DNA of 64,000 bases from the NCBI RefSeq assembly GCF_024502345.1, contig NZ_JALDNN010000001.1, one strand, 5' to 3'. Source of the stretch: Escherichia coli. Its GTDB lineage: Bacteria; Pseudomonadota; Gammaproteobacteria; Enterobacterales; Enterobacteriaceae. Positions 3,408-20,506 of this stretch are shown one piece after another. The notes below the pieces were generated by a model, which searched no databases, was not told the DNA's origin, and was given only the letters and a program-made list of their open reading frames with translations. The position numbers and the translations under genes are program-made. Every line of letters starts with the position of its first letter. Within the stretch, counting starts at the first letter, position 1.

Positions 3408-4337
3408 TCAAAACAGCTTTTGGATGCGCGTCTTCAACTCGTCGAACCATCCATTGCCGCTTTTGCCACCAGCCGACTTTTGCTCAATGGACTTCACCTG
3501 ATCGAAGATGGGTTTGAAGTCCTCCTTCTTGCCATAACCCAGGATTTGCGCCAGCTCGATCTCCGTGCGCACGGACGACAGCAAGGTGCTGAGCTCCTCG
3601 TTCTGCTTGGCATCGCGCTTGTCAGTCTCGGCCAGCTTTTCAGCTTTTGCCATCGCGGCTTCGGCCCGTAGCACGGGCAGAGGGAGTACAACTTGGGTGA
3701 CCACCAGCGTGTTCAGTGCTCGGGCGAGTTCCGCCTTGGCGTTGTCGATCTTGCCGCTGTCGATGAGCCGTGCGGCCGACTTGATCGCTGCCGGGTACGT
3801 TGCCATCGGCAGGTTGTCGGTTTCGATCACGATTTCGCTGGCAAGATTGGCAACAATGGGCCGTGCCTTTTGCACCTCGCCATCATCCAACAACTCCTGA
3901 GACAACTTGACCGCTTTCTTGACCGATTCCACGTCGGCGTGGATGTCATGGGTGATGACGCTTACATCGACGGGCGCCAAAGCAATTTTTGGCTCACGCG
4001 CCAATACCAGTTCCAGCTTTCCGCTGGCCAGTTCCAGCGCAGCGAGCGCCTCCTTGGTCTTCTTTGCATCAAGGAGGATCAATGCCTCATGGGTCTTGGC
4101 CAGCGCAGTGATTGCATCTTGGGCGAGTTCGGCGCGCTTCTTCGCGGCTTCCCGGGCGACCTTGTCATCTACCTGTGGCAGCGCCGCTTTGGATGCGGCA
4201 GAGGGTGCTGCAGCACCTGGGCTAGAACCTGCCGCCGATTGGGCCAGAGCCGGTCCGCTCAGTCCGACGACGACCGCCAGGGCAAGTGCGGAGAAGATGT
4301 ATTGTGGCTGTTTGATATTCATGATGTTGGACTCCAA
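3408..4337 (-). CDS. YfdX-family periplasmic protein (first copy), signal peptide
   Basis: 309 aa; N-terminal signal-peptide-like hydrophobic segment; paralog of 2418-3305. Confidence 0.7.
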   Translation of the reverse strand: MESNIMNIKQPQYIFSALALAVVVGLSGPALAQSAAGSSPGAAAPSAASKAALPQVDDKVAREAAKKRAELAQDAITALAKTHEALILLDAKKTKEALAALELASGKLELVLAREPKIALAPVDVSVITHDIHADVESVKKAVKLSQELLDDGEVQKARPIVANLASEIVIETDNLPMATYPAAIKSAARLIDSGKIDNAKAELARALNTLVVTQVVLPLPVLRAEAAMAKAEKLAETDKRDAKQNEELSTLLSSVRTEIELAQILGYGKKEDFKPIFDQVKSIEQKSAGGKSGNGWFDELKTRIQKLF

Positions 4338-4343
4338 TTGAAG

Positions 4344-4802
4344 TTAATTGACTGAAATTTCAATCTGTTTCGGTTTGGCTTGCTCGGCCTTGACAAGCCG
4401 CACTTCCAGCACGCCGTCTTTCATGGAAGCCGTCACCTTGGTCGGATCAACGTTGTCAGGCAAGACAAAGCTGCGCACAAAGCGGCCATACGCACGTTCG
4501 ATGCGGTGGAACTTCTTGCCCTGCTCCTCTTTTTCCAGTTTGCGCTCGCCGCTGATGGTGAGCACACCGTTTTCCGCGCTGACGCGCACGGCATCCTTGG
4601 GGACCTCCGGCAGATCCAGCTTGAGGAGGAATGCGTTCTCATCCTCGCTGATGTCCACCATTGGTGCCCAGTCCGCCGTGGTCATGGCTTCGTTGCCGGT
4701 ACGGGCGCCCTGTCGCTGGGGTGTCCGTCCCAACATCGTCGCCAGGCGGTTTTGCAATTCATCCAGTTCCCGGAAGGGGTCCCACGGAGTCAATGCAGAC
4801 AT
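4344..4802 (-). CDS. Small heat shock protein, Hsp20/alpha-crystallin family (sHsp-GI)
   Basis: Alpha-crystallin domain (ISEDENAFLLKLDLPEV...GVLTISGER...GVLEVRLVK); start taken at internal Met (track ORF extends to 4865). Confidence 0.8.
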   Translation of the reverse strand: MSALTPWDPFRELDELQNRLATMLGRTPQRQGARTGNEAMTTADWAPMVDISEDENAFLLKLDLPEVPKDAVRVSAENGVLTISGERKLEKEEQGKKFHRIERAYGRFVRSFVLPDNVDPTKVTASMKDGVLEVRLVKAEQAKPKQIEISVN

Positions 4803-4896
4803 ATCGGTTCTCCTTGAACAATGCCGGTGAATTGGATGACGCACCGAACAGAGCCGCCGGCTCACTCTGAATAGCGCCTATTACTTTTCGTTTCTA

Positions 4897-6231
4897 TCAA
4901 GAACAGGCCATGAGCAAGAATAGTCCATGAAGCAATAGCGCATGTCCCATCTCGTGATAGGCCACGGTTTCCCGCTCCTTCGGATTGAGCACACGGTTCT
5001 TCCTTTCCAGGCCGGCCACGATGCGCTCGATGGCGGCGGTGAAGTCTTGCAGCTCCACAGCCTGCGCCTTGCGCCGCGTCGCGTTCAGCGCTGCTTCGTT
5101 CACGAGATTGGCCAGATCAGCGCCGGAAAAGCCGGTGGTCAACGCCGCCACCTGTTCCAGATCTACACCGTGGGCCAGGGTGATCTTCTTGACATGGACC
5201 TTCAGGATATCCAGGCGACCTTTCTTGTCGGGACGGTCCACCAGCACCTGACGGTCGAAGCGACCGGCACGAAGCAAGGCCTGATCGAGGATTTCGGGGC
5301 GGTTGGTGGCGGCGAGGATGATCAGCCCGACCGAGCTGTCGAAGCCATCCATTTCGGTGAGCAACTGGTTCAGCGTCTGCTCACGCTCGTCGTGTCCGCC
5401 GGTCGGTCCTCCGACACCGCGTGCGCGGCCCAAAGCATCCAGCTCATCAATGAAGATGATCGCCGGCGCCTGCCCGCGCGCCTGCTCGAACAGGTCGCGC
5501 ACGCGCGCCGCACCCACGCCGACGAACATCTCGACGAACTCCGAGCCTGAGATGGAAAAGAACGGTACCCCGGCCTCGCCCGCCACGGCCTTGGCCAGCA
5601 GGGTCTTGCCCGTGCCCGGCGGGCCAACCAGCAACACACCTTTCGGGATGCGCGCGCCGAGGCGGCCGTAATCCTGCGGGTTCTTCAGGAAGTCGACGAT
5701 TTCGACCAGCTCGGCCTTGGCCTCATCGACACCCGCGACATCGGCAAAGGTGACGCCGGTGTTCTTCTCCATGAACACCTTGGCGCGGCTCTTGCCGATG
5801 CTCAGGAAGCCGCCCATGCCCTGCTTCTCGGCGAAGCGGCGGAACAGGAAGAACCAGACGCCGAAGAAGGCCACCGCCGGCAGAATCCAGGAGAGCACAT
5901 CACGTAGCCAGGTGCTTTCCACCACCCGCGCGTAGGGCACCTCGTACTTGGACAGCCGCTCGGCCAGGTCGGGTTCGACGCGAGTGGCCACGATGGTGGT
6001 CTTGCCCCGGCTGTCCGGCGATTTCAGGCGCCCGGTGACCGTGCGGTCCGACACCAGCACTTCGGCGACGCGCCCCTCGGCCAGCGCCTTCTCGAATTCG
6101 CTGTAGGGCACGGGCTCGACGGTCTTGGCCGCCTGCCAGTAGTTCTGCAGCGTCAGCAGCAACAGGCCGGCGACGATCCAGTAGCCAATGTTCCATTGAT
6201 CTTTCTTTTCCATGGGCAATGTTCCTCGCAA
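4897..6231 (-). CDS. FtsH-like AAA+ protein, C-terminally truncated (ends at the HEMGH zinc-binding motif; M41 peptidase domain absent)
   Basis: N-terminal TM segment plus AAA module (GPPGTGKT Walker A, DELD Walker B); ORF stops 12 codons after HEMGHA; only 31 bp to next gene; downstream bases AT-richer. Confidence 0.75.
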
Positions 6232-6240
6232 GTCGTGCCG

Positions 6241-7701
6241 CTAGAGAATGGGGGTGAACAGACGGGCCACCCCGTCGCGCAAGCGCATGGCCAGCGGGTG
6301 GGCGCGCAACGCCTTCGCCGATATCTCGCCCGACACATCACGAGCGGCATCAAAAAGGGATGACAGCCGCGTAGACAACGCGGTGTCGTACACCTCCACA
6401 TTGAACTCGAAGTTGAGGCGCAAACTGCGCGCATCCCAATTGGCCGAACCCAGGCAGCACCACGCTCCGTCTACCAGCATCAGCTTGCTGTGGTCGAACG
6501 GGCCAGGCCGTTCGAAGATGCGCACACCGTGCTCCAGCACCTGCCAGTAGTGGGCGCGCGCGGCCCATTGCACCGTGGGATGGTCGCCGTTTGCGGGCGT
6601 CAGCACGTCGATACGCACGCCGCGCAACGCGGCCGTGCTCAGCGCCGCGATCATCGGCTGATCGGGGACGAAGTAAGGTGTCCAGATGCGCACCGAATGC
6701 TTCGCCGCGCTCAAAGCGCCCATGAAGGTCCAGCGCATCCGGTCCAGGGCCTCGTCGGGACCGGCCTCGATGCCGCGCGCCCAACTGGTTCCCGGCTCAT
6801 CAGCCGTTACGGGCGGTTCGCCCCAGAAACCCTCGTTGAGCCGCTCGCCCGTGGTATCGCACCAATCATCGGTGAAGCTCCGCATCAGATGCTCCACCAC
6901 CGGCCCGCGCAGACGAAAGTGCAAATCGTGACAGGCCTGGTCCGGCGCATCGGGCCGCCAGTACGGGCTGAAGATGTTCAATCCGCCGGTGAAACCCGTC
7001 TCGCCATCGATCACCAGCAGCTTGCGGTGATTCCGCAGATGCGCGGCATGCAGGCGCGCGGGAATCAATGTCGGGTTGAACGTCGCCGCCGGAACGCCGG
7101 CGCGCTGCAAGGCGCGGTAGGCGCTGCGGGGCGTCCAGCGGGCATACACGTCGTCGATCAGCACCCGCACTTGCACGCCGCGCTCATGAGCCCGGCGCAG
7201 CGCATCGACGAACTGCGCCCCGATGCCTTGGCTGTCGAAGATGTACGAGGTCAAGGCGACGCTGTACCGCGCCGATTCGATGGCGGCGAGCATGGCCGGG
7301 TAGGCCTGCTCGCCATCGACAAGCGGCTCGATGCGGTTGCCGCCGGTCAGCGACTGGCCGGTGGCGCGTCCCACCAGGTGGGCCAGACCGGCAAGTGGCG
7401 GCGATACAGCCTCGGGTATCGTGGGCGAGAGATCCTGCCGAACAGCAGGATCTGCCCCCGGGAAGAGCCGCCGCGCCCGCCGCTGGTAACGGTTGATGCC
7501 GAACAGCCCATACAGCAGCGAACCGCCCAGCGGCAGCAAGGCGATCAGCAGTACCCACAGCGTGGCCGATCGAGGGTCACGCTTGTAGATGACCGCATGC
7601 CCCGCTGTGGGGATAGCGACCGCCAGCGACACGAGGGTGGCTGCCCATGTCAGCCCATTGGGGTCGGACACGACAGCCTCCCATCGCTCAAGATTCGCCA
7701 T
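6241..7701 (-). CDS. cls: Cardiolipin synthase-like phospholipase D family protein
   Basis: Two HxKxxxxD motifs (HRKLLVID, HSKLMLVD); N-terminal membrane helices; about 487 aa from internal Met (track ORF 6241..7884 overlaps clpK). Confidence 0.8.
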   Translation of the reverse strand: MANLERWEAVVSDPNGLTWAATLVSLAVAIPTAGHAVIYKRDPRSATLWVLLIALLPLGGSLLYGLFGINRYQRRARRLFPGADPAVRQDLSPTIPEAVSPPLAGLAHLVGRATGQSLTGGNRIEPLVDGEQAYPAMLAAIESARYSVALTSYIFDSQGIGAQFVDALRRAHERGVQVRVLIDDVYARWTPRSAYRALQRAGVPAATFNPTLIPARLHAAHLRNHRKLLVIDGETGFTGGLNIFSPYWRPDAPDQACHDLHFRLRGPVVEHLMRSFTDDWCDTTGERLNEGFWGEPPVTADEPGTSWARGIEAGPDEALDRMRWTFMGALSAAKHSVRIWTPYFVPDQPMIAALSTAALRGVRIDVLTPANGDHPTVQWAARAHYWQVLEHGVRIFERPGPFDHSKLMLVDGAWCCLGSANWDARSLRLNFEFNVEVYDTALSTRLSSLFDAARDVSGEISAKALRAHPLAMRLRDGVARLFTPIL

Positions 7702-11521: not shown

Positions 11522-12028
11522 ACCACCCCCACAAGTTCCGTCGTCACGCGGCCTCGCCTGAGGAAGTTCTTGCAAGACTTTGCAAGATATTGCGCCTAAT
11601 ATGCCAAAAGTCAAGAGTCAACATCCAGCGATCTGCTGGCCGATTGATGTGACTCAAATCTTCAAGGACGGTATGCCAGGGCGGGCCGGTCCGGCGCAGG
11701 GGACGGTGGGTTGATCGGGACCTTGCGGGCGCCGCCCACGGCCGCAGATCAAACACCGATCCTCACGTTGTAACCGAGCGCCCGCAGCCCCTTGCTCGTG
11801 CGCATGTTCCTTGGCGGAAACTCGTCTGGGCGCGCCCAGCCGACGATTTCCCCGAGGCTGCTCAGGCCAATGTGCGGAATTGCCCAGTCGTCGCTGCGGA
11901 TCGCGTTCCAGAGTCGGGCCGAAAAACCTCCGTTGCCCCAGACAACGTAGTTCAACAGTATCCGTCCTGCCAACACACCTTCCCGACACCGCCGCCGAAG
12001 GCCATGGCCCATCAAGCGGATTTTCCAT

Positions 12029-12399
12029 GCCCCCTCAGCGCCGTACCTACAGCAAATCTTTCAAGGCCCAGGTCATTCAGGAGTGTTCTGAACCCGGTGC
12101 CTCCATCGCAAACATCGCCTTGGGCTACAGCCTCAATGCCAACCTCGTCCACAAATGGATTCGGCTGCATACCCAGAAAACCACGGCTATCCAGCCAGCG
12201 TTCATCCCGTTGCCTTCTCAAATGCTCGGCGCGGGATCGCATGCTCAAGTGCGCTGCTGCGATCATGAGTTTGATCCAGTCGGCCCGTAATAATGGGCAC
12301 GATCCGTATGCCTATCTCAAGGATGTGCTGACACGGTTGCCGACGCAGCGGGCGAGTGAGATTGCAGAGCTGCTGCCGCATAGGTGGCATCCGGCATAG
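12029..12399 (+). mobile_element. IS66-family remnant: OrfA-like HTH fragment fused to a TnpC C-terminal fragment (internally deleted)
   Basis: RRTYSKSFKAQVIQE...NANLVHKWIR transposase-HTH pattern; separate frame ends ...GHDPYAYLKDVLTRLPTQRASEIAELLPHRWHPA like the IS66 TnpC C-terminus; central transposase region absent. Confidence 0.6.
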
Positions 12400-12639
12400 T
12401 CGCGCAAGACGGTCTGCCCGCACGCTTACGTTCAACAGCTCAAGCACCGTCCGCCCTTCGCGGGATCGTTGCCGCCAGAGCCACACGCCGAACTTTTCCA
12501 CCTTGTCGTCGCCGGCCTGCGGTCAGTCAGGCAAGCCCAGGTGCTTGTTTTCCTGCTTGATCGCGTGGTCTCGGATCGCGTGCACCCGGGAAACGGCATC
12601 CACGAACTGCCACCATCTCTTAGCTTGGCGGGGTCAAGC

Positions 12640-14497
<1,858 letters not shown>

Positions 14498-14505
<8 letters not shown>

Positions 14506-16000
14506 TCCATCTTCCTATCAATCGAATGAACGCAGTGGTCAGTGGTGCCACCCTGCTTTTTTCCAATCCACAACGCTTTTCCAGCTCCCAGCGCCTAGAC
14601 GTTATGCCTGTCTGTACATCCTTCAGCATCGCTGCAGTCAGGCGACGGATCTGATACTCGCCGACGGACTCGGCATAGCGATCCAGGAAGGTGCAGCAAA
14701 GAGGCAATTGATCGAGACGGTGCTCGACTGATGCCCGATGGGGTAGCTGCTGCAGGAACCAGTTGCGACTCCTGCGCGGAAGGCCCAGGTCTTCTTCGCT
14801 ACCTCTACCAATCCGGATCAGCAGGCGCACCAACCTTATGTCACGCGCTCGCCAGTCGATGTGGCTGTTGTTGCCCTGTCGGCGCTGCCTGACCTGGTTC
14901 GCAACCATCAGCCAGTGTCGGTCATGACGATAGAGCCAGGCGTAACATGCCCCTGCTCCGTCTTGCCTGGCTGCCTTGGCTCCACCGTGATTAGCCAGTG
15001 CTTGCAGCCAAATGGCTCGGTACTGCTGCTTTTGCTCAAACTCAGCAGGGAGCAGCTGCACTGACCGCTCGGAGGCAAGGTCGACCTGGCGAGTCTTCGC
15101 CTCGCTGATCAGCTCGCCAGCATGCTGGCCAGGGCGCAGGCTGGTCCAGACGATCAGATGCTGCAGCGCACTGAATCCCTTGCGATGCTTCCTGAACATC
15201 GCCAACAGCCAAGGTGGAGGCTCTCCGGATGTCAGCAGACCGTTCGCAGCAAGCCAATCCCTTTGATGGGATGCCAGGATCTTCTCCCAGATGACTTCAG
15301 CCCTGACCTGCCGGCCTCGCCTGGCGCCGCACTCTGTAGCCAGGTACCGGTACAGGTTGGTCCAGCGTCCGTAGCCAGGCGATTGCACCTCTTCGAGCGC
15401 CAGCAGCTGCATAGCAGCCTTGGCGAGCCTGATAGCCTCTTCGCCCACGGGACTCACGCGAAGATCACGGGGCAGAAACAGTGGAGAGGCTGTATGAAAC
15501 TCGTGCCGCTGCGCTCGACGGAACGGGATAGGTGAGTTCAGGAGCTGACAGCCATGCTCGGGACAGGCATCTATCCCTTGAATCTGCCAGCTGCGCCGCC
15601 AGTAGGGTTCACCGTAGCGCGCAGCCATATCTTCAAAGCAGATCGGGCAGTAACGCAGCCAATCGGGCCACTTGACCAAGGCCGTCGAGGCCCCAGACAG
15701 ACCAATCGTCGGCCGGTCGGGAGCAAGCATGGCCTGAAAAAGATCGGTACGGCGCTCCGGCGGAATGAAAGGGGCATAGAGCGGGAACAGCGTGTGATTC
15801 AGGATCATGCCTTCCGCATCCAAGCCCGTGTTGTTCGCCAACGCAGTCAGGTGTGTGGGCAGATCGGTGATCGCGGCAACCTTGCTGTCACCGAAAAGCA
15901 TGTGCAGCAAGGTCTTGTGGCTGCCTATCCCCAGATGTACCCGGCACCGGGCAATACCGCTGTAAAGCAGTTCGTCCGGGTAGAGCCTGGGGAAGTACAT
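14498..16000 (-). CDS. tnsD: TnsD/TniQ-family target-site selection protein
   Basis: 500 aa; N-terminal TniQ-like region (YPDELLYSGIARC) and CPICFED...CPEHGC zinc-finger motif. Confidence 0.75.
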
Positions 16001-16001
16001 G

Positions 16002-17612
16002 TCAGCTCGCTCTCAGCAGAGGCCGTAGATCGAGGATCAAGCCAGCCTGCTTGAATCTGTCATAGGCCTCGCTTTCAGGCCCATCGGCATAACGTCGGCG
16101 CAGATCCTCCTCGGATAGGCACCCCCACTCCGTCCGCTTAACTCTGGAAATGCCGGGCCTCTTGGGAGCGTCCTGCGCGAGGTAGGCCGTGGCCTTGTGA
16201 ATCAGGGCCGCCAGCGGGATGTCCGGATTCTCCGCCAACAATTCATCGGCCATGGGAATGGCGATGTCCCTCGGGATTTCCATACCTTCGAGCAGGGCGG
16301 CCAACCGCTTTGCCTTGTCATCAGCCGGAGGGGCCGGTGGTTTAGGTTGGGGGACGCTATCCAGAGAGCGAGTCAGGGTCAGCAACCGTCCCTCGATCTC
16401 TGGCATCAGCAGGTCGTCATATTTGGCGATCAGCTCGGGCCTACCGCTCCGCAAGGCCGCCAGCATCGGATGGACCGGTTTGAACTCGTCCTCGAAAACC
16501 CTGCGCAGCAACAGCGGCTTAATGCACTCGACACCTGTCACTATCGCCCGGATCTGCGCCAGCGCGAACAGCTTGATGACGATGTCCATGACCCCTTGGG
16601 TGAGGTCGTACATCGTAGCCTCCAGTTCATCATCCAGCGGCGCCGCATTTCGCAGCCACTGATACTTCCAAAGCCGCTTCAACAGACGCTTCCAATGCTC
16701 GTCCCGAGGCAACCTATCCCAGCGGATGCTGCCCAACCCGGAGACCCGCCGAGCAGCCCGGAACGTGCGCTGGAAGAACTTGCTGGCCCGGTGGGTGCCG
16801 ACCTGAATGATCGGAACACCGATGGTGTTCACCAGCGACACGAAGAAATTGTGCATTTTTTCGGCACCACCGGAGCGTGCCTCGTTGAGGTTCTGAACCT
16901 CGTCGATGATCAGCACTCCGAGCGTGTGCAGATTGGCCAGCTGGCACATGGATGCCAGCAGACGTTTGGTACCCAGCTTCTTGCGTCCGTGGCTACGGCT
17001 GTAGTGGGTACCCAGGATCTTGTCTACTTCGTTGAAGAAGCTCAGGCACAGCTCATCCAAGTCACCGTCAATTGGGCAGTCGATCTTCAGGTAGACCAGT
17101 TGGGTGATGTCGTAATCAGGGTGATGGAGAGCTTGGGGGTACATGCCCAGAATCCGCTCCAGCGTGCGCGTCTTGCCGCAACCGGAGCAGCCGAACAGCG
17201 ACAGGCTGTTGGCCGTAGAGGAGACACTCTGGTACACCGCCGCATCCAGATCCTCCTCCTCGACACGGCGATAGCCATTCTGCAGGTGCGCATACCAGGC
17301 ACCGCTGGCCGGATTCCGACCGATGTACCCTTGACGGATCATCAGGCTGATCTTGCTCTCCAGCTCCAAGTGATGGCTCAGCGGCTGGAAGAAGCCGTGC
17401 AACAGGCGGGCAATCGCATGTGCCCTGAGCCGACCATCCAGAAGCGCCTCCTGCGGCTCGAAACCGGGAAGCTGCTGCAATAGATCGACCACCTCCTGCA
17501 GATCAGGAATCGGAGGCAATGCGCTGATGAGCGGATTGTCCTGATACTCGGGAAGCTGCTGCTCCTGGTAACGCGCCAGGGGAATGACTCCGCGCTGGAA
17601 TTCTTCAGTCAT
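16002..17612 (-). CDS. tnsC: TnsC AAA+ transposition regulator
   Basis: 536 aa; Walker A GCSGCGKT; Walker B-like IIDEVQN; placed between tnsB and tnsD. Confidence 0.8.
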   Translation of the reverse strand: MTEEFQRGVIPLARYQEQQLPEYQDNPLISALPPIPDLQEVVDLLQQLPGFEPQEALLDGRLRAHAIARLLHGFFQPLSHHLELESKISLMIRQGYIGRNPASGAWYAHLQNGYRRVEEEDLDAAVYQSVSSTANSLSLFGCSGCGKTRTLERILGMYPQALHHPDYDITQLVYLKIDCPIDGDLDELCLSFFNEVDKILGTHYSRSHGRKKLGTKRLLASMCQLANLHTLGVLIIDEVQNLNEARSGGAEKMHNFFVSLVNTIGVPIIQVGTHRASKFFQRTFRAARRVSGLGSIRWDRLPRDEHWKRLLKRLWKYQWLRNAAPLDDELEATMYDLTQGVMDIVIKLFALAQIRAIVTGVECIKPLLLRRVFEDEFKPVHPMLAALRSGRPELIAKYDDLLMPEIEGRLLTLTRSLDSVPQPKPPAPPADDKAKRLAALLEGMEIPRDIAIPMADELLAENPDIPLAALIHKATAYLAQDAPKRPGISRVKRTEWGCLSEEDLRRRYADGPESEAYDRFKQAGLILDLRPLLRAS

Positions 17613-19692
17613 CCTCTTCCTCCTTGAATATCAGGTCACTGAGATCTGGGAAGGCATAATCTTCCTGCTTCTCGCCCCGCAGTGGGATCACCTCGGCTGG
17701 CTTTTCCTGCTGTGCTTTATCCGGTTTGAATGCTGTTTTCTGGCGTTCCTGGCGCTTTTCCTGCTGCTTGTTCTCGCGGATCTGGGTTCCCAGATCCTTC
17801 GTGGTCATACCCGTTTTGAGCGGACTGGCATCCTCTGCCTGGGCAACGATGGACTCGATCTGCTTCAGAAGATTGCCTCTCTCTACCAAAGCTTCCGCCG
17901 CCGCGTTGGTATCGCTACGCCGTTCCTCTCTGGACAGCAGCCAGACATCCCAGAAGGTCATCCCCCTGAAGCGTCGACTGCGGTCGGCAAGATCGCAAAC
18001 CCAGTAGTCCTTGAGACTATTGGACGGCCGCAGGTAGATGTGGTCGGCGCTACGCGGATCGTATGCGACCGTTACCCCTGTCGGCCGGCGCCCCTGGCCT
18101 CGGTGAAACCAACCCTCCCTGATTGCTTCCTGGCAGGTGTAGAAGCAGCCGAACAGTCTGATTCCCAGCTCCGAAACCGTGGCCGACTCATGGGGCAAGA
18201 GATTTATCCGCACCAGCTCCTCGGGCGCAGTACGTAACCGGCCGGTCAAGTTGGCCAAGCCCCAGTTCCACAGCATGACCGGGATGGCTGGCAGATCGCC
18301 CGGCATACCAGAGGTTCTGTCGTATTTGCTCAAGGTATGAAAGTTGTTGTGGTAGAGGATGCCGGCAATGATGATCTGGGTGAACTCGGGCAAGGTCAGA
18401 CTGGCATCAAGTCTGTAGTCGTGGCCACCCCGCTTCCGGCTGGTGGTGTCCTCGACCACACCGCTGGCATAGGGCTTGAAACGCTCCTGCACCGTCCGGA
18501 AATAACGCTCGACGATCCCCTTGGCATCTCCTCGCCTGGCCGGTGCATTCTCGATGCGAACGCCGAAGGCTTGGGAAAATGCTTCCACCTTGGTGCCATT
18601 CAGTTCGCCCTTATCGGCCAGCACCACATCCGGCAAGCCTTTGACCGGCCAGTCGCTGGCATCGATCTCCACGCTATACTGGCGGCAATACTCAACCTTG
18701 TCGGCGACCGTGTTGGCCAATGCCACCATGGCACTGACCCAGGAAGGTCCCTCGAATCCGACGTACATACCAACGACCATGCGGCTGAACACGTCGATCA
18801 CCATGTAAACGACAGGCCTGCCGACGATAAGGCTGCGATCATGTTCTGAAACCAGATAGATATCGGCGATGGTGGCATCGATCTGGTAGCGGTATCCTGG
18901 CCCCAGTGCCTCGGTCGTCGATGTACTGCTGAGCGGTCGGAAGTCCTTGGCAAAATCCACTGCGGACACCCTGCATGGCAAGGTGTCGGTGAAGTGATAT
19001 TCGCGCCCATAGAAGTAACGGAACTGCCCCAATGTAGGCAGTTCGGAGGTCGGCAGCTCCGTCAGAACAGCACGGAGCAGATTCAGCCCGGCGGCGTAGG
19101 CATCAGGAATGGACGGATGTTTTTCCTTGAGCAAACGTTCCTCGATGACCCGGCGAAAAATGCGCTCGATGTCCGGCGTGACATTGCTCCCTTTCCCCTC
19201 CATCACCACTCTGGGCCTGCCCAGCTTGGCCTGGTTCGGCTTTCTGCGCTTGCCACGGGCGCCCGAGTTGACATAGTCCGGCAAGAGGGCATTCCTGCAC
19301 ATGCCTCGCTGCCAGTAGCGCCTCAGTAACCTATACACCGTCTGATTGGTGACACCATGGCGCTCCATGATGCCTCTGACAATGAGCCCTCTGGGGCGCC
19401 GCACGAAAAGCTGGGGGTTGTGCACAAAATCCGCCAGCATTCCCCAAGCTTCATCACGCTTCTGCTGATCAAGGGAACCTTCCTCAACCTCCCGTAGGAC
19501 TGTTTCCTCGAAGGGATCGGCAATGCTCTCCAGCTCCCGCTCCATGATCAGACGCTCCAGCTCTACAATCGATATCGGTTCGGGCAACGCCGTGTCCGAA
19601 TCGATATCGATCCAGATTGCCTGCTCGGTACCGGACCAAAGCAGGCGCTTTCGCAGTTCCCCCATCCGGAACACCTGATTAACGGGCAACAC
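17605..19692 (-). CDS. tnsB: TnsB DDE transposase (retroviral-integrase-like core)
   Basis: 695 aa; N-terminal HTH, central rve-like core (YQIDATIADIY...VIDVFSRM...), similar in size to Tn7 TnsB. Confidence 0.85.
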   Translation of the reverse strand: MLPVNQVFRMGELRKRLLWSGTEQAIWIDIDSDTALPEPISIVELERLIMERELESIADPFEETVLREVEEGSLDQQKRDEAWGMLADFVHNPQLFVRRPRGLIVRGIMERHGVTNQTVYRLLRRYWQRGMCRNALLPDYVNSGARGKRRKPNQAKLGRPRVVMEGKGSNVTPDIERIFRRVIEERLLKEKHPSIPDAYAAGLNLLRAVLTELPTSELPTLGQFRYFYGREYHFTDTLPCRVSAVDFAKDFRPLSSTSTTEALGPGYRYQIDATIADIYLVSEHDRSLIVGRPVVYMVIDVFSRMVVGMYVGFEGPSWVSAMVALANTVADKVEYCRQYSVEIDASDWPVKGLPDVVLADKGELNGTKVEAFSQAFGVRIENAPARRGDAKGIVERYFRTVQERFKPYASGVVEDTTSRKRGGHDYRLDASLTLPEFTQIIIAGILYHNNFHTLSKYDRTSGMPGDLPAIPVMLWNWGLANLTGRLRTAPEELVRINLLPHESATVSELGIRLFGCFYTCQEAIREGWFHRGQGRRPTGVTVAYDPRSADHIYLRPSNSLKDYWVCDLADRSRRFRGMTFWDVWLLSREERRSDTNAAAEALVERGNLLKQIESIVAQAEDASPLKTGMTTKDLGTQIRENKQQEKRQERQKTAFKPDKAQQEKPAEVIPLRGEKQEDYAFPDLSDLIFKEEEDD

Positions 19693-20506
19693 TGCTCAGC
19701 TCCTGATGCATTTGATGAGAGTTGGCAACCAGGTCTTTCGGCTTCAGCTCCCGGTAAGGAGTGTCAAGATCGAAAAGGAAACAGTGCCGGGCCAGCAACT
19801 GGCGTAGCCAATAGAGCGCCTGACCGGCCTCCAGCTGGCCGGAGGTATCCAGTCCTTGGGCAATAGCGGTCAGCTTCCGGTCTGGGTGACGCTGAAACTC
19901 GAGCAGAAACAGCTGCTGGTAATGGGCGAGATCGTCCTGAGCGATGTCGCCTTCAGCATGGGCAGGATAGAGCCATTGGATATTGGCAAATGCCACCTTG
20001 GATACCTCGCGCTCCGTAACGATGACCCAGGGAATACCTTTTTCCTGCCAGTAGCGCCTTTCAAGCTCAAGCCTCTCGATAACTTCAGGCTTCTGCAGGT
20101 CGGTACTGTACTTGGCCTGAATCGCGATGCTCGGGCGCTGAGGATCTTCGAAATCCACCAGAAAGTCGCTGGTCAGTACCTGCGGGGTACCCTTGTAACA
20201 ACCGTGGGGCAGGCCAAGCTCCTCGGCGATGCGCACCGTATCTTCGACCCGCATCGGAAACTGTTCACGGATATCGGTGACATGGGGAGACCGATCCAAG
20301 GTCAGGAAGATGGCCAGTTCAAGATCGGATAGAAGATGGTGTAAACGCCGGGTCTTGCTGCCAGGCAGGCGGTGGGAGCGACCCAGCGAGGACACGTCCC
20401 TTGTGTAGATGAACGGCTTGTAGTCTGATCCCTGGCCTTGACCACGCCCGTCCTTGAGCCTTCTATCGATCTGGGCCTGGGTCAGCCCCTTGAATGTTCC
20501 AGACAT
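19679..20506 (-). CDS. tnsA: TnsA endonuclease
   Basis: 275 aa; blocks shared with Tn7 TnsA as I recall it (QIxRRxKxGRGQG, GRSHR, HHLLSDLELAxFL, DIREQFP, LELERRYWQ). Confidence 0.9.
   Translation of the reverse strand: MSGTFKGLTQAQIDRRLKDGRGQGQGSDYKPFIYTRDVSSLGRSHRLPGSKTRRLHHLLSDLELAIFLTLDRSPHVTDIREQFPMRVEDTVRIAEELGLPHGCYKGTPQVLTSDFLVDFEDPQRPSIAIQAKYSTDLQKPEVIERLELERRYWQEKGIPWVIVTEREVSKVAFANIQWLYPAHAEGDIAQDDLAHYQQLFLLEFQRHPDRKLTAIAQGLDTSGQLEAGQALYWLRQLLARHCFLFDLDTPYRELKPKDLVANSHQMHQELSSVAR

Follow-up and report, generated by a model that had tools for sequence, protein, structure and literature searches.

A truncated ftsH-GI gene in a tLST2c-like island of Escherichia coli: probable non-functional remnant of an ancestral deletion

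The stretch of DNA analysed here, which we call the window, comprises 64,000 nucleotides of an Escherichia coli genome. It includes a truncated ftsH gene located between cls and hsp20-GI and downstream of clpK. This position, together with high identity to island FtsH proteins, places it with the ftsH-GI genes (FtsH2 or PaFtsH2) of the tLST, LHR and TLPQC islands, where the same gene is found at the same clpK-cls-ftsH-hsp20-GI position. The features concerned are the following, in window coordinates.

4344–4802, minus strand: intact hsp20-GI (ATG start at 4802), which lies directly downstream and shares the operon orientation
4803–4905, minus strand: 3′ end and intergenic region in their native form, with 97.6% identity to the sequence which follows full-length ftsH-GI
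4897–6213, minus strand: ORF of the ftsH-GI remnant, a RefSeq pseudogene “missing C-terminus”
4906–4936, minus strand: junction filler of 31 nt, ATTGCTTCATGGACTATTCTTGCTCATGGCC, which replaces 528 nt of the M41 domain
4937–4995, minus strand: Peptidase_M41 stub including HEMGH (4942–4956), Pfam model positions 1–21 of 191
5038–5637, minus strand: complete AAA module (Pfam AAA, residues 193–326, and AAA_lid_3, residues 350–392)
5503–5513, minus strand: GC-rich indel hotspot in the AAA core, intact in the window and deleted (11 bp) in tLST2b
5700–5800, no strand: approximate internal recombination boundary, from identity per 100 nt
5929–6186, minus strand: N-terminal membrane region (Pfam), with TM1 (approximately residues 9–27) and the periplasmic FtsH_ext domain
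6241–7671, minus strand: cls (cardiolipin synthase/PLD-like), the intact upstream neighbour, whose stop is 27 nt before the ftsH start

The remnant ORF extends over 438 codons from an ATG at 6213 to a TGA at 4897–4899. A mechanical ORF list places its start at a TTG at 6231 (4897..6231, minus strand), the position also adopted in the earlier note, but this is not the real start: a GAGGAA Shine-Dalgarno sequence lies 9 nt 5′ of the ATG at 6213, and RefSeq uses the same ATG. The 31-bp spacer described downstream of the gene (4866–4896) likewise derives from a mechanical GTG start at 4865. Measured to the hsp20-GI ATG at 4802, the spacer is 94 bp, compared with 78 nt in full-length loci. The stretch between 4803 and 4905 carries both the new stop codon and the hsp20-GI ribosome-binding site. 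Coordinates in the corresponding locus of E. coli ABWA45 are obtained by adding 4701 to those of the window.

The N-terminal part of the 438-aa product has the organisation of the FtsH family, a two-TM anchor with a periplasmic FtsH_ext domain (Pfam, residues 10–95). TM1 was read off the sequence, and the peak of the hydropathy scan corresponds to TM2 (approximately residues 105–125, nt 5839–5901). This is followed by a classic AAA module in which Walker A (residues 197–204), the pore loop MFVGVG (229–234), Walker B (252–259) and the second region of homology (303–321) are all intact. The retention of the membrane anchor and of a complete AAA module, proposed in the earlier note, is therefore confirmed by both Pfam (FtsH_ext, AAA, AAA_lid_3) and the motifs, as is its main observation of an FtsH homologue truncated at the HEXXH motif. 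HEMGH is present at residues 420–424, but the Peptidase_M41 match is limited to model positions 1–21 of 191 (residues 407–427), and approximately 170 of the 191 positions are missing. Alignment with solved FtsH structures and with full-length relatives places the GAADD zinc-ligand region and all of the C-terminal helices in the deleted part; the sequence stops where VALALPG... begins in the full-length proteins. After HEMGHA there are 13 foreign hydrophobic residues before the stop (not 12, as first counted), of which the first, a Leu, is common to full-length FtsH. This tail has a mean Kyte-Doolittle hydropathy of 2.1. The NCBIfam FtsH equivalog model TIGR01241 gives the remnant a score of 595.5 for a cutoff of 600, and the full-length island FtsH a score of 779. 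In spite of the conserved His-Glu-x-x-His, the product cannot act as a protease, having neither the third zinc ligand nor the remainder of the catalytic fold nor a protease ring, in agreement with what had been anticipated from its truncation. The copy in the window shows no second lesion: all 438 codons are in an open frame, the AAA motifs are undamaged and there is a good ribosome-binding site.

The junction was placed by BLAST and direct inspection with the ftsH-GI gene of the ECONIH4 plasmid (609 aa; L002, 6582–8411) as reference, a comparison with full-length island homologues which had been recommended at the outset. Homology to this gene stops at 4937, just after CATGCGCT, and restarts at 4905. 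Between these points, the 31-nt filler (4906–4936) stands in place of 528 nt of M41 sequence. On the left, the sequence breaks between CATGCGCT and GGTGGCGCTGGCGCTG, within a run of GCGCT repeats. Up to 4937, the AAA part matches the ECONIH4 gene at 90.6% identity, and the stretch downstream of the filler matches at 97.6%; the deletion junction also coincides with a change of sequence lineage. The suspicion of a deletion or recombination junction was therefore well founded. It had been based on the AT-richer composition of the last codons and the spacer, and the GC content is indeed 45% in the filler and 50% in the spacer versus 64% in the gene body. This part of the argument is nevertheless partly trivial because the spacer is native intergenic sequence, 97.6% identical to that of the full-length locus. 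There is no apparent functional meaning in the placement of the breakpoint at HEXXH.

No second copy of the filler was found within the window, and a search for its source in five related loci gave best local scores of 9–10, which is noise level. Its sequence is only suggestive of an origin: the first 15 nt might be a remnant of the gene’s own last codons (11–12 matches of 15), and the 16 nt after them look like an imperfect duplication. If read in this way, the event would have been a 513-nt in-frame deletion together with a 16-nt insertion shifting the frame into the new stop.

Truncation at this position could in principle be an assembly or sequencing artefact or a mutation private to the strain. 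The distribution of the allele leaves this idea with practically no chance of being correct. Four independent complete E. coli genomes carry positions 4300–7000 of the window, at 100% identity in the chromosomes of ABWA45, C 236-04A and LR536430 and at 99.9% in that of G3/10; the two differences in G3/10 fall outside the ftsH remnant. The exact 438-aa protein occurs on 188 contigs under several accessions. The identical junction, including the filler, is present in approximately 30 further records, which are chromosomes and plasmids of four genera and metagenome contigs. Among these are the tLST2b island of E. coli TC24 and a Klebsiella pneumoniae plasmid identical to TC24 over 3291 nt, 20 plasmid records from Klebsiella, Enterobacter and Citrobacter, and a metagenome contig (L005) which has in addition lost nearly all of cls. 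In complete E. coli genomes, 10 of 142 tLST-bearing records carry it. A sequencing error whose correction would restore the frame through M41, raised in the earlier note as a possible refutation, is excluded because the M41 DNA is absent and the same sequence is found in independent genomes. A second such possibility, that the short ftsH is the ancestral state, also fails: the short form is derived, since full-length forms of 601–627 aa dominate among relatives. The remnant has thus lost an essential domain compared to the ancestral gene.

The gene content of the island fits that of tLST2c, published in 2025. ABWA45 has an undivided orf11 of 1146 bp and no orfC or orfD, whereas in TC24 these two split orf11. 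An IS21-family istAB element located between trx-GI and a kefB-like antiporter gene matches the IS insertion of tLST2c, and the host of the window-type island is ST635, as in the tLST2c description. According to Li et al. 2025 (PMC12603250), tLST1 and tLST2c often occur together in ST635 and ST399. The istA/istB element adjoins the left edge of the window (positions 1–50 and leftwards; L001 2242–4529). At approximately 12000–19700 of the window (ABWA45 4171416–4178238) the island is adjoined by a Tn7-like transposition module which shows signs of decay: TnsA is broken into an N-terminal and a C-terminal fragment, the annotation between tnsE and the island is limited to a 102-nt piece of an “ATP-binding protein”, and small transposase fragments occur nearby. 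Next to this is a restriction-modification/helicase cluster which includes a helicase-related protein, DUF4391, a methyltransferase and a type III endonuclease.

Sequence identity along the island shows that the region between 4300 and 8200 is a recombination mosaic with a switch of lineage near 5700–5800. Positions 5801–6200 are 98–100% identical per 100 nt to Pseudomonas aeruginosa ftsH2, whereas positions 5800–4937 belong to another lineage which is common to other truncated copies, with 77–92% identity to the ECONIH4 plasmid and 91–99% to tLST2b. The clpK and sHSP20 genes are virtually identical to those of the ECONIH4 plasmid island (dS about 0.001), while for ftsH and the same comparator dS is 0.44; cls is 93–100% identical per 100 nt between the two islands. 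This structure limits any estimate of selection. Comparison of the window ftsH with other alleles gives omega values of 0.04–0.12 (Nei-Gojobori), but for a gene which is a recombination mosaic, and the changes unique to the window, when polarised, are 2 non-synonymous and 7 synonymous, a count confounded by the same recombination. Several of these “unique” residues moreover recur elsewhere, G215 and T271 in full-length alleles and E91 in a 505-aa fragment. The omega values would at first sight point to purifying selection, but as a test of function of the truncated gene they were set aside as unable to decide, on the grounds of the mosaic and of the presence of “unique” residues in other alleles. 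Since the gene is mosaic and E91, G215 and T271 occur in other alleles, the differences in the window, and with them the synonymous excess, were probably inherited from functional ancestors.

Sister copies with the same junction have decayed further. The ftsH remnant of tLST2b carries both Q23* and an 11-bp frameshifting deletion at 5503–5513, with approximately 13 non-synonymous and 15 synonymous changes unique to this lineage; tLST2b can clearly do without the truncated gene. In the metagenome copy of contig L005, 9 nt are missing from the AAA core. In another metagenome scaffold (L013), which otherwise carries the allele of the window, a 13-bp tandem duplication at approximately 5915 introduces a frameshift which splits the ORF. 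A 333-aa E. coli protein encoded on a 1289-nt contig was considered as a second disrupted copy and discarded, as the contig merely starts downstream of the site.

Lesions are also found in ftsH-GI genes of other islands. ABWA45 carries a second, tLST1-type, ftsH-GI (NZ_CP022154.1, 4252504–4254231; L012 1872–3599) approximately 61 kb from the copy of the window, and such a second island is present in at least three of the four strains which carry the allele of the window. This copy is annotated as intact (WP_000412528.1, 575 aa), but lacks residues 236–261, which include the entire Walker B motif, and 268–271, and retains M41. The two copies in ABWA45 have, in other words, complementary defects. 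The island ftsH-GI is frameshifted in E. coli C and EA7 and carries an internal deletion in AW1.7. A GC-rich run of GCGCG repeats lying between the pore loop and Walker B is an indel hotspot (5503–5513; nt ~700–800 of the full-length CDS). It is the site of the 11-bp deletion of tLST2b, the 9-nt metagenome deletion, the loss of 78 nt in tLST1, small insertions in EA7 and, in P0022, a 9-nt duplication (RDL). In enterobacterial islands, ftsH-GI has been disabled in at least four or five independent ways while clpK, the sHSP genes and yfdX are intact, which suggests that Enterobacteriaceae can dispense with the island FtsH or pay a cost for it. The broad pattern of ftsH-GI loss is already visible in the literature.

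The integrity of the AAA module in the window raises the alternative that the 438-aa product is a working membrane-anchored AAA+ ATPase without a protease, which might serve as a holdase or extractor of damaged membrane proteins, as a substrate trap or as a poison of co-resident FtsH hexamers. Such a function is in keeping with the open frame, the intact ribosome-binding site and AAA motifs and the frequency of the allele (188 contigs). Hydrophobic C-terminal ends such as that of the remnant usually mark proteins for degradation, however, and the 13-residue tail would probably make the product unstable. Hexamer formation in the FtsH family can be driven by the membrane anchor (PMC5095350), and the passage of PMC8290217 which describes Kamal 2019 mentions protease-dead, ATPase-active FtsH variants which bind substrates in pull-downs. 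Against this, the passage of PMC5095350 citing Herman 2003 reports FtsH to be without robust unfoldase activity, and even the full-length PaFtsH2 has been described as a latent enzyme (PMC10850787). Mixing with host FtsH would depend on the N-terminal region, in which PaFtsH1 and PaFtsH2 diverge most, with ~24% identity (PMC10850787), and the only other island FtsH of this genome is without Walker B. The nonsense and frameshift mutations of tLST2b and the 13-bp frameshift within the allele lineage of the window itself also argue against a maintained activity. Heat resistance appears to be independent of ftsH-GI status, being comparable for islands with intact and truncated genes in the passage of PMC8290217 which cites Boll 2017, and no contribution of FtsH-GI to E. 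coli’s tolerance of stress has been shown (PMC8290217). We consider a working ATPase improbable. The more specific proposition that the truncated anchored AAA+ protein is expressed in tLST2c strains with an activity of its own, either as a protease-less extractor or holdase or in mixed hexamers of partial function with the tLST1 FtsH-GI, is less probable still. Of the two outcomes proposed in the earlier note, the pseudogene is favoured by the RefSeq annotation and by the decay of sister copies, while a substrate trap or dominant-negative product finds no support.

The open frame might instead have been kept for its translation, which would shield the cls-ftsH′-hsp20-GI-yfdX transcript from Rho-dependent polarity over the 1.3-kb remnant. 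A simple scan detected no promoter-like or terminator-like site between cls and hsp20-GI, and the stop of the remnant lies 94 nt before hsp20-GI, versus 78 nt in full-length loci. In the spacer between ftsH and hsp20-GI, no Rfam family was found and the RNA fold was not significant (z = +1.4). Yet tLST2b, with its stop at codon 23, has spread widely among clinical Klebsiella plasmids, where hsp20-GI is intact; therefore either polarity is tolerated or an hsp20-GI promoter was missed by the simple scan. Protection from polarity seems to us a very unlikely reason for the open frame. The upstream gene, cls (6241–7671, minus strand), shows a high dN/dS of approximately 0.5 against both comparators, and constraint may be relaxed on cls as well. 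It is named “phospholipase D-like domain-containing protein” by RefSeq here and “cardiolipin synthase” in related islands.

Taken together, these observations lead us to favour, with a probability of roughly 80%, a non-functional ftsH-GI remnant left by an ancestral deletion whose junction has since spread, and whose frame is still open here. A single ancestral event removed ~171–176 codons of the M41 peptidase domain, leaving the 31-nt scar, and the junction then spread into several island backgrounds through island transfer and recombination. The copy in the window lies in one of these, an E. coli island identical to that of ABWA45 and tLST2c-like. Its 438-codon frame is still open and, as no terminator lies between cls and hsp20-GI, is probably co-transcribed with them; its product would contribute nothing to the island phenotype. 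The sequence comparisons show that the deletion took place, that it arose once and spread, and that sister copies have gone on decaying.

The deletion is old and widely shared, and is already annotated and catalogued: in ABWA45 and G3/10, RefSeq lists the remnant as a pseudogene, “incomplete; missing C-terminus”, truncated cls and ftsH are conserved in TLPQC-2 (Nguyen 2017, PMC5347186), the orf4-6 of Mercer 2015 have been termed “truncated and dysfunctional” (PMC8407380), and “minor deletions in ftsH” are reported for tLST2a, b and c (Li et al. 2025, PMC12603250). The ORF should remain flagged as a pseudogene and not be counted as an extra FtsH protease of heat-resistant or “naturalized” wastewater or food-plant E. 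coli. The breakpoint at 4937, the 31-nt filler and the resumption at 4905 provide a handy marker for the tLST2b/2c lineage and its recombinants.

The island of the window shares with tLST2c (PMC12603250) a deletion in ftsH, a lack of orfC and orfD, the IS between trx and kefB and the ST635 host, and its junction is that of tLST2b. The papers on these islands mention the ftsH deletion only in passing, as “minor deletions”, without a breakpoint. The ftsH lesion of tLST1_AW1.7 is different, a larger deletion than that of the window. At the protein level, the product is 96% identical to the 609-aa ftsH-GI of an E. coli plasmid (A2), but lacks residues ~426 to the end, that is, the M41 fold except for the HEXXH helix. 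FtsH-type AAA modules without proteolysis are known from two other sources, the engineered protease-dead FtsH “trap” variants, which the window product resembles in this respect, and the FtsHi proteins of plant chloroplasts. Both, however, have kept the M41 fold together with the hexameric protease ring and lost only the catalytic residues, while in the remnant the motif is retained and the fold is gone. FtsHi proteins are in addition conserved under selection, unlike the window-type remnant, which decays in its sister lineages.
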